This document shows, one piece after another, positions 12,092 to 12,352 of a DNA stretch of 25,983 bases (position 1 is its first letter; each line of letters starts with the position of its first letter). Below the pieces are notes generated by a model that was not told the origin of the DNA, searched no databases, and was given only the letters and a program-made list of their open reading frames with translations. The position numbers and the translations under genes are program-made. The DNA is from Chloroflexota bacterium (GTDB lineage: Bacteria > Chloroflexota > Limnocylindria > QHBO01): assembly GCA_013820865.1 (NCBI GenBank), contig JACDHU010000001.1:1-25983 (forward strand), written 5' to 3'.

Positions 12092-12352
12092 ATGCATGAG
12101 GCAGGACTCTGCGAGGGGATCGTCGAAGCGGCTTTGCACCGCGCGGCCGGCCGGCCGGCCGTAAAGGTGCGCGTTCGTATCGGCGGCCACCACGAGACCG
12201 ATCGCGAGGAGCTCGACCTGGCGTTCCAGGTCCTCACCATGGGGACCGAGCTCGCGGATGCGACGCTTGAAGTCGTCACGGTGGAGGGAGACGAGCTGAC
12301 GCTCGAAGCGCTCGAGTTTTCGCCGTCGGCGGCAGCCGTCAGCACGGGCTAG
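12092..12352 (+). CDS. hypA: HypA/HybF nickel metallochaperone lacking the zinc-finger domain
   Basis: MHEAGLCEGIV N-terminus, VRVRIG, TDREELDLAF, ATLEV and GDELTLEALE match the HypA Ni domain; no CxxC pairs; 86 aa. Confidence 0.8.
   Translation: MHEAGLCEGIVEAALHRAAGRPAVKVRVRIGGHHETDREELDLAFQVLTMGTELADATLEVVTVEGDELTLEALEFSPSAAAVSTG

Follow-up and report, generated by a model that had tools for sequence, protein, structure and literature searches.

A conserved HypA without the zinc-ribbon domain in group 1h [NiFe]-hydrogenase operons

Introduction

Can a HypA protein do without its zinc domain? The question is raised by a gene of 86 codons (positions 12092 to 12352, forward strand) in a 25,983-nucleotide stretch of a Chloroflexota genome (the window; contig JACDHU010000001.1), which encodes the nickel domain of HypA but no zinc-ribbon module. 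In reviews and current papers, HypA is treated as a two-domain protein whose zinc site is stabilizing and needed for partner binding. In particular, single cysteine changes in the zinc site of Helicobacter pylori HypA leave no more hydrogenase activity than is seen in a hypA null mutant (PMC5557546), and a 2026 paper describes the zinc site as both stabilizing and essential for the binding of partners (PMC13202556). The gene described here is a real, conserved HypA from which the whole zinc-finger domain is missing. Its sequence and a structural model indicate that it probably encodes a working one-domain nickel metallochaperone of the HypA type, which would load the large subunit of a group 1h [NiFe]-hydrogenase. 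A full-text literature search found no published account of a natural zinc-less HypA.

The short hypA gene

The hypA reading frame is intact, from ATG to TAG, and a purine-rich, Shine-Dalgarno-like GGGGAAG lies 4 nt 5' of the start codon. The initial annotation held that the nickel-binding MHE and a downstream aspartate had been kept, and that the zinc segment had been removed with the frame reading straight through. Both statements are borne out by the translation: M1-H2-E3 is followed by G31-G32-H33-H34-E35 and by T36-D37-R38-E39-E40, and residues 57-75, ATLEVVTVEGDELTLEALE, are uninterrupted. There is one cysteine in the protein (C7) and no CxxC; the inserted zinc ribbon with two CxxC motifs is therefore absent from the 86-residue HypA. 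The Pfam HypA family (PF01155) is matched with 36.7 bits (gathering cut-off 28.9), at profile positions 1-69 of 112 only, and the NCBIfam equivalog TIGR00100 with 28.1 bits, below its cut-off of 88.1.

An alignment with the closest full-length HypA proteins (117-126 aa, 45-59% identity) contains a single clean gap of 33 columns between V64 and E65. The gap coincides exactly with the stretch that bears CxxC at 70 and CPxC at 86 in these relatives, and the sequences flanking it align unshifted on either side. Likewise, a profile of the family matches the HypA proteins of Thermococcus kodakarensis and H. pylori on either side of their zinc domains, so that the two halves of the nickel domain are both covered. 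MHE is found without exception in 15 close homologues, is conserved in a wider set of 76 (at least 90%), and is strictly retained at the N-terminus of every short form.

The model of the short HypA calculated with AlphaFold2 from 76 homologues is confident and compact (pLDDT 88.4, pTM 0.75). It consists of a helix (residues 2-18), a strand (23-31), a second helix (38-49), and two further strands (58-64 and 69-76), the latter connected by a four-residue turn, E65-G66-D67-E68, at the point where the zinc ribbon is usually inserted. In a Foldseek search of the PDB, all matches with E values up to 0.034 were HypA chains, two of which passed an E value of 0.001; the best were 3a43_B (TMq 0.82, rmsd 2.4) and 6g81 (TMq 0.73), and the matches that followed the HypA chains were noise (E >0.1). 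As judged from this model, the short HypA is predicted to fold as a HypA nickel domain.

The operon and its surroundings

The contig is a hydrogen-oxidation and CO2-fixation island. The group 1h operon, whose genes all lie on the forward strand, begins with the hydrogenase small subunit (4833-5906) and the large subunit of 602 residues (5933-7741), followed by a NifU-like plus Rieske-domain protein (7745-8623), the conserved operon members DUF5947 (8580-9347) and DUF6084 (9344-9988), a 444-residue protein that has no Pfam or NCBIfam match but is syntenic in all related group 1h loci (9985-11319), and the HupD/HycI-type maturation endopeptidase (11313-11819). Two DUF6893 small membrane peptides come next, one of 40 residues with the C-terminal sequence LPDIARYFRMRSM (11832-11954) and one of 35 residues directly 5' of hypA (11975-12082). 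Beyond hypA lie hypC (12364-12672; HupF/HypC family, N-terminal MCLGI), which starts 11 nt past the hypA stop codon, a DUF6390 gene (copy B, 12669-13508), whose ATG overlaps the hypC stop codon (ATGA), and an ABC importer (13615-17352) composed of a PhnS2/FbpA/PotD-like binding protein, a fused two-domain permease, and an ATPase. From the small subunit to hypC, the same gene order recurs in approx. 50 loci from Actinomycetota, Dormibacterota, and Chloroflexota, and hypA occupies the same slot, between hupD and hypC, in all related group 1h loci. The DUF6893 mini-genes each encode one transmembrane helix and the C-terminal motif LPDIxRY[LF][RK][MI]RxM; the strict form of the motif is found 5' of hypA in 14 related loci from three phyla, and a 15th match (locus L065) lies 3' of hypA.

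The large subunit carries a C-terminal extension for cleavage by HupD and the motifs RICGICGDNH and DPCLPCGVH, which we take, following HydDB, to be those of group 1h. It scores 1065 bits against HofG (5AA5), the sole solved group 1h enzyme, and 154 bits against the next best structure. With its active-site motifs intact and its gene under purifying selection, it is the presumed nickel acceptor of HypA. A second, divergent [NiFe] large subunit (1-1725, forward strand), the 5' end of which is cut by the contig edge, scores 515 bits against 5AA5 and keeps the active-site cysteines (RACGVCGGVH, DPCMPCTTH). The cluster to which it belongs (1-4526) also contains a protease-like gene without a Pfam match (1727-2242), a gene for a 132-residue wHTH-like protein with a Cys/His-rich tail (2239-2637), a protease-like HycI gene (3020-3544), and another DUF6390 gene (copy A, 3780-4526, forward strand), the product of which is 42% identical to copy B; neither a hypA nor a hypC gene is present in this cluster. 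On the minus strand, a Calvin-cycle cassette (18338-24164) encodes PRK, a class 1 FBPase, a CbbX-type AAA protein, and the small and large subunits of RuBisCO, and a divergent LysR regulator gene stands beside it. The position of this cassette next to the hydrogenase genes suggests hydrogen-driven CO2 fixation.

Recurrent loss of the zinc module

Zinc-less HypA proteins were found in three lineages that carry this operon: Limnocylindria, seven Streptomyces species, and one metagenome-assembled genome (MAG) of the Streptosporangiaceae (locus L007). The junction at which the module is missing reads VV[TP]V-[ED]GDEL in Limnocylindria and TVP-GDEF in Streptomyces, where the short proteins have 93-113 residues. 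In L007 the short HypA is fused to a SIS domain, and its fused relatives in loci L049 and L052 keep the zinc module. The C-terminal part of these three fusions (265-313 aa; 6575-7372 in L007) comprises approx. 180 residues and is SIS-like by eye. In a tree of the adjacent large subunit (50 rows, L049 included, and 587 columns), three changes are required to explain the short state, and well-supported branches force at least two of them. Within this operon type, the zinc module has thus disappeared on two to three separate occasions. The large subunits of Limnocylindria branch inside an otherwise actinobacterial group of the tree, which suggests that the group 1h operon was acquired by Limnocylindria from Actinomycetota by horizontal transfer.

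The short form extends beyond these genomes. When 1.84 billion cluster representatives were searched with the profile, 1492 matches were obtained, and 99 of the best 150 were well covered. Among these 99, 35 are colinear with the short HypA and contain no CxxC (77-120 aa), and the remaining 64 have an insert of approx. 33 residues with two CxxC motifs; the profile favours short forms, so that 35 of 99 counts clusters and should not be read as a frequency. At least 35 further zinc-less clusters thus exist. Genome streamlining is a weak candidate for the cause of the loss, as the same loss is seen in Streptomyces genomes of 8-9 Mb.

Missing Hyp partners and DUF6390

The zinc module of HypA has been described as communicating with partner proteins (PMC12134894, PMC13202556). 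No HypB (TIGR00073) was found above the cut-off in the window's genome (84% complete) or in four sister MAGs. Only two of the 45 genomes with this operon have HypB above the cut-off, whatever the form of their HypA, and the HypB-less carriers (among genomes G002-G045, loci L004-L068) include cultured Streptomyces, Nonomuraea, and Spongiactinospora. The sub-threshold matches to HypB are UreG proteins, which are the sole G3E matches and score 264-286 bits in Streptomyces. As HypB is missing from 43 of the 45 genomes, HypA of this operon type generally works without it, and the high-affinity group 1h hydrogenases seem to be loaded with nickel in its absence. This absence may have relaxed selection on the zinc module and hence led to its repeated loss. 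However, the zinc domain persists in most operon-bearing genomes that have no HypB; the lack of HypB is therefore an insufficient cause and not the whole reason for the loss.

Other maturation proteins are missing as well. HypD, HypE, HypF, and HypB were all absent from the five genomes of the Limnocylindria clade that were searched (G000, G001, G006, G007, and G009), and tblastn searches of the window's whole assembly with Streptomyces HypD, HypE, and HypF returned nothing. HypD was found in none of 151 genomes sampled from the window's order, 15 of which contain a [NiFe] large subunit; 48 of the 151 are at least 90% complete, and several are assembled in 3-10 contigs. Across the genomes with the operon, HypD is missing from 13 of 45, and each of these that was tested for HypE and HypF (all except G007) is also without those two proteins; HypE and HypF are likewise absent from G007. 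G027 belongs to the 28 genomes for which the HypD search was positive. G007 (identical to G146; loci L006 and L099) and G027 are unpublished genomes, and none of the conclusions rests on them.

Loss of the zinc domain cannot be tied to the loss of HypD, HypE, and HypF. The short forms of Streptomyces are accompanied by a normal HypCDEF set, and the HypDEF-less actinobacterial loci L022, L027, and L028 keep the zinc domain.

The slot 3' of hypC is occupied by a DUF6390 gene in the window and by hypD in Streptomyces, and DUF6390 occurs in 10 of the 13 HypD-less genomes with this operon, compared with 6 of the 32 HypD-bearing ones. [quoted passage not shown] The likeness to HypC is weak: HypC is the best PDB match of the OB-fold domain with an E value of 0.06 (TM to target 0.63-0.81), and the profile-profile match to HypC has a probability of 64% and an E value of 6e-5. 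An ABC importer lies directly 3' of DUF6390 in the Limnocylindria loci (13615-17352 in the window, 9584-13309 in L004, and 9501-13160 in L005), and a homologue of its binding protein is encoded at the edge of the HypDEF-less actinobacterial loci L022, L027, and L028 (positions 1-750), within approx. 3-4 kb of DUF6390. In the clade without HypD, HypE, and HypF, the genes for the large subunit, HypC, and DUF6390 have dN/dS values of 0.03-0.29, which indicates purifying selection. A full-text literature search found no mention of DUF6390 in publications.

In the window's order and in HypDEF-less Actinomycetota and Dormibacterota, the operon contains hypC, DUF6390, and an adjacent ABC importer instead. 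The distribution of DUF6390 may mark an undescribed maturation route; as related genomes are not independent and MAGs can miss replicons, the HypDEF-less pattern remains a lead. The window's genome is only 84% complete and is without HypD, HypE, and HypF, so that the pathway fed by HypA would itself be unorthodox. A tentative proposal, somewhat short of an even chance, is that the zinc-less HypA serves nickel insertion within a maturation route that dispenses with HypB, HypD, HypE, and HypF. If this holds, the synthesis or acquisition of the Fe(CN)2CO-Ni centre follows an undescribed course, to which the minimal HypA would be adapted.

Proposed function

All elements from which the HypA nickel site is known to be built are kept in the sequence and the fold of the short HypA, and nothing beyond them; on these grounds the protein is read as a one-domain nickel chaperone. 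In the proposed mechanism, the strands that normally flank the zinc ribbon would be joined by the four-residue turn, and Ni(II) would be bound at the N-terminus by the amine of Met1, the imidazole and amide of His2, and Glu3. The site would be completed by Asp37 and perhaps by His33 or His34 from the neighbouring loop. In this form, HypA would dock on the immature group 1h large subunit and probably also serve the second large subunit encoded on the contig. In the HyhL-HypA structure, the large subunit reportedly contacts the nickel domain. Nickel would be handed over once the iron unit is in place, after which the C-terminus of the large subunit would be trimmed by HupD. Delivery would proceed without HypB, the absence of which may make the zinc module expendable.

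The two histidines deserve separate comment. The extra His-His pair to which the initial annotation drew attention is present (GGHHE), and His33, and hence GGHH, is confined to the short form of Limnocylindria; His34, in contrast, is typical of the whole clade of HypA proteins from this operon type, where it is found in 40 of 50 zinc-containing and all 13 short proteins. Among wider representatives, His34 is present in 22 of 36 zinc-containing but only 14 of 40 zinc-less forms, and the pair therefore does not make up for the missing zinc site. Asp37, three to four residues after the position of His33 in the alignment, aligns with Asp40 of H. pylori HypA, which is a proposed nickel ligand (PMC5557546), and is not conserved in the short forms of Streptomyces. 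An extra imidazole at the nickel site, contributed by His33, is plausible from these positions.

It has also to be considered that the short HypA no longer carries nickel and has become a docking or checkpoint factor, which would hold the N-terminal tail of the immature large subunit and, in Limnocylindria, belong to a non-canonical maturation route based on DUF6390. Such a role would fit a clade in which HypB, HypD, HypE, and HypF were not found, the translational linkage of hypA to hypC and DUF6390, and the lack of conservation of Asp37 in the short forms of Streptomyces, but it leaves unexplained why the nickel-binding MHE is strictly kept in every short form and why the same short form occurs in Streptomyces together with a normal HypCDEF set. 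We consider it unlikely, and the one-domain nickel chaperone remains the preferred reading.

Conservation, selection, and copy number

A search of 5.8 billion proteins revealed eleven homologues of 86-94 residues with 70-97% identity and one of 80 residues with 53% identity, all without the module. Among species-representative genomes, the same short form is found in the same position in four other MAGs of Limnocylindria/Chloroflexia (L004, L005, L006, and L008), and a scan of the window's order detected it in seven genomes of two genera, always with GGHH. The closest relatives are thus short at the same position, and full-length hypA occurs there only in distant actinobacterial relatives. For five Limnocylindria hypA genes, L006 among them, pairwise dN/dS is 0.01-0.14 at a dS of 0.6-1.1; the short hypA is under strong purifying selection. 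The initial annotation's view of the protein as a naturally occurring HypA that has no zinc domain is upheld by this conservation and selection, as well as by the predicted nickel-domain fold.

These observations bear directly on the possibility that the short hypA is a decaying remnant, a gene from which a deletion removed the zinc domain and which is turning into a pseudogene. The reported need for the zinc site in H. pylori (PMC5557546) and a score below the NCBIfam equivalog cut-off could be taken in this sense. Decay is nevertheless very improbable: it is already contradicted by the low dN/dS at near-saturated synonymous divergence, the frame is intact and of equal length in at least seven species of two genera, the module was lost independently and the gene retained in Streptomyces, and the model of the protein is confident and compact.

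The initial annotation suggested a zinc-sparing form. Still less credit can be given to the idea of a zinc-sparing paralogue that would replace a zinc-containing HypA under zinc scarcity in the manner of Cys-less ribosomal proteins; the absence of the zinc site itself is the sole point in its favour. Six-frame PF01155 searches detected no second HypA in the window's assembly, in a sister MAG of 7 contigs (G001), in a genome of the same genus that is 96% complete and also has two large subunits (G057), or in four Streptomyces genomes of 8-9 Mb. As each short-form genome searched has one HypA and no zinc-containing copy, there is no partner with which it could switch. A split gene with a stand-alone zinc ribbon was not seen either: the extra weak PF01155 matches are zinc-ribbon motifs within unrelated reading frames of 337-884 residues. 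The further suggestion of the initial annotation, that the protein is specialized for a single large subunit, is not supported, since the contig and G057 each combine two different large subunits with one HypA.

Finally, although the window's assembly is a fragmented MAG (388 contigs, 84% complete), an assembly or frameshift artefact is refuted by the same architecture in independent MAGs, some of them long-read assemblies with contigs of 0.9 Mb, and in cultured Streptomyces.

Significance

A domain that has been described as essential is dispensable in nature, having been removed at least two to three times in one operon type, and strong selection still acts on the 80-90 residues that are left, the sole HypA detected in these genomes. 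As a minimal nickel chaperone of natural origin, the short protein would define the smallest surface for nickel binding and for recognition of the large subunit. Moreover, the short form is present in cultured Streptomyces with a standard HypCDEF set, so that the purpose of the zinc domain can be tested directly by genetics. The operon belongs to the high-affinity class that oxidizes atmospheric H2 and has a Calvin-cycle cassette as its neighbour, so that its maturation is also relevant to trace-gas chemosynthesis in soils.

Comparison with known HypA proteins

The closest structural counterpart is HypA of T. kodakarensis (PDB 3A43/3A44; HypAB complex 5AUN; HyhL-HypA complex 5YXY/5YY0), which ranks first in the comparison of sequence profiles (E 1.4e-12) as well as in that of folds (TMq 0.82). 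The two proteins share MHE and the nickel-domain fold; however, the archaeal protein carries a zinc domain of approx. 57 residues between its last two strands, an insertion that is missing from the window's HypA, and it works with an ATPase-type HypB, whereas no HypB was found in the window's genome.

With H. pylori HypA (2KDX, 6G81) and the E. coli HypA and HybF proteins, the short HypA has in common the MHE nickel site and a hypC-adjacent role in hydrogenase maturation. These proteins possess Cys4 zinc sites, mutation of which abolishes hydrogenase maturation in H. pylori, and the window's protein has no such site. They act together with HypB (plus SlyD or UreE), partners that were not found in the genomes searched.

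The full-length HypA proteins of actinobacterial group 1h operons (for example, L009, L010, L013, and L022; 113-140 aa) occupy the same slot and are 45-59% identical to the short HypA, with which they share the MHExGLCEG start, His34, and the GDEL strand past the insertion point. They differ from it in keeping the 33-residue module with CxxC motifs at 70 and 86, which the HypA of the window lacks.
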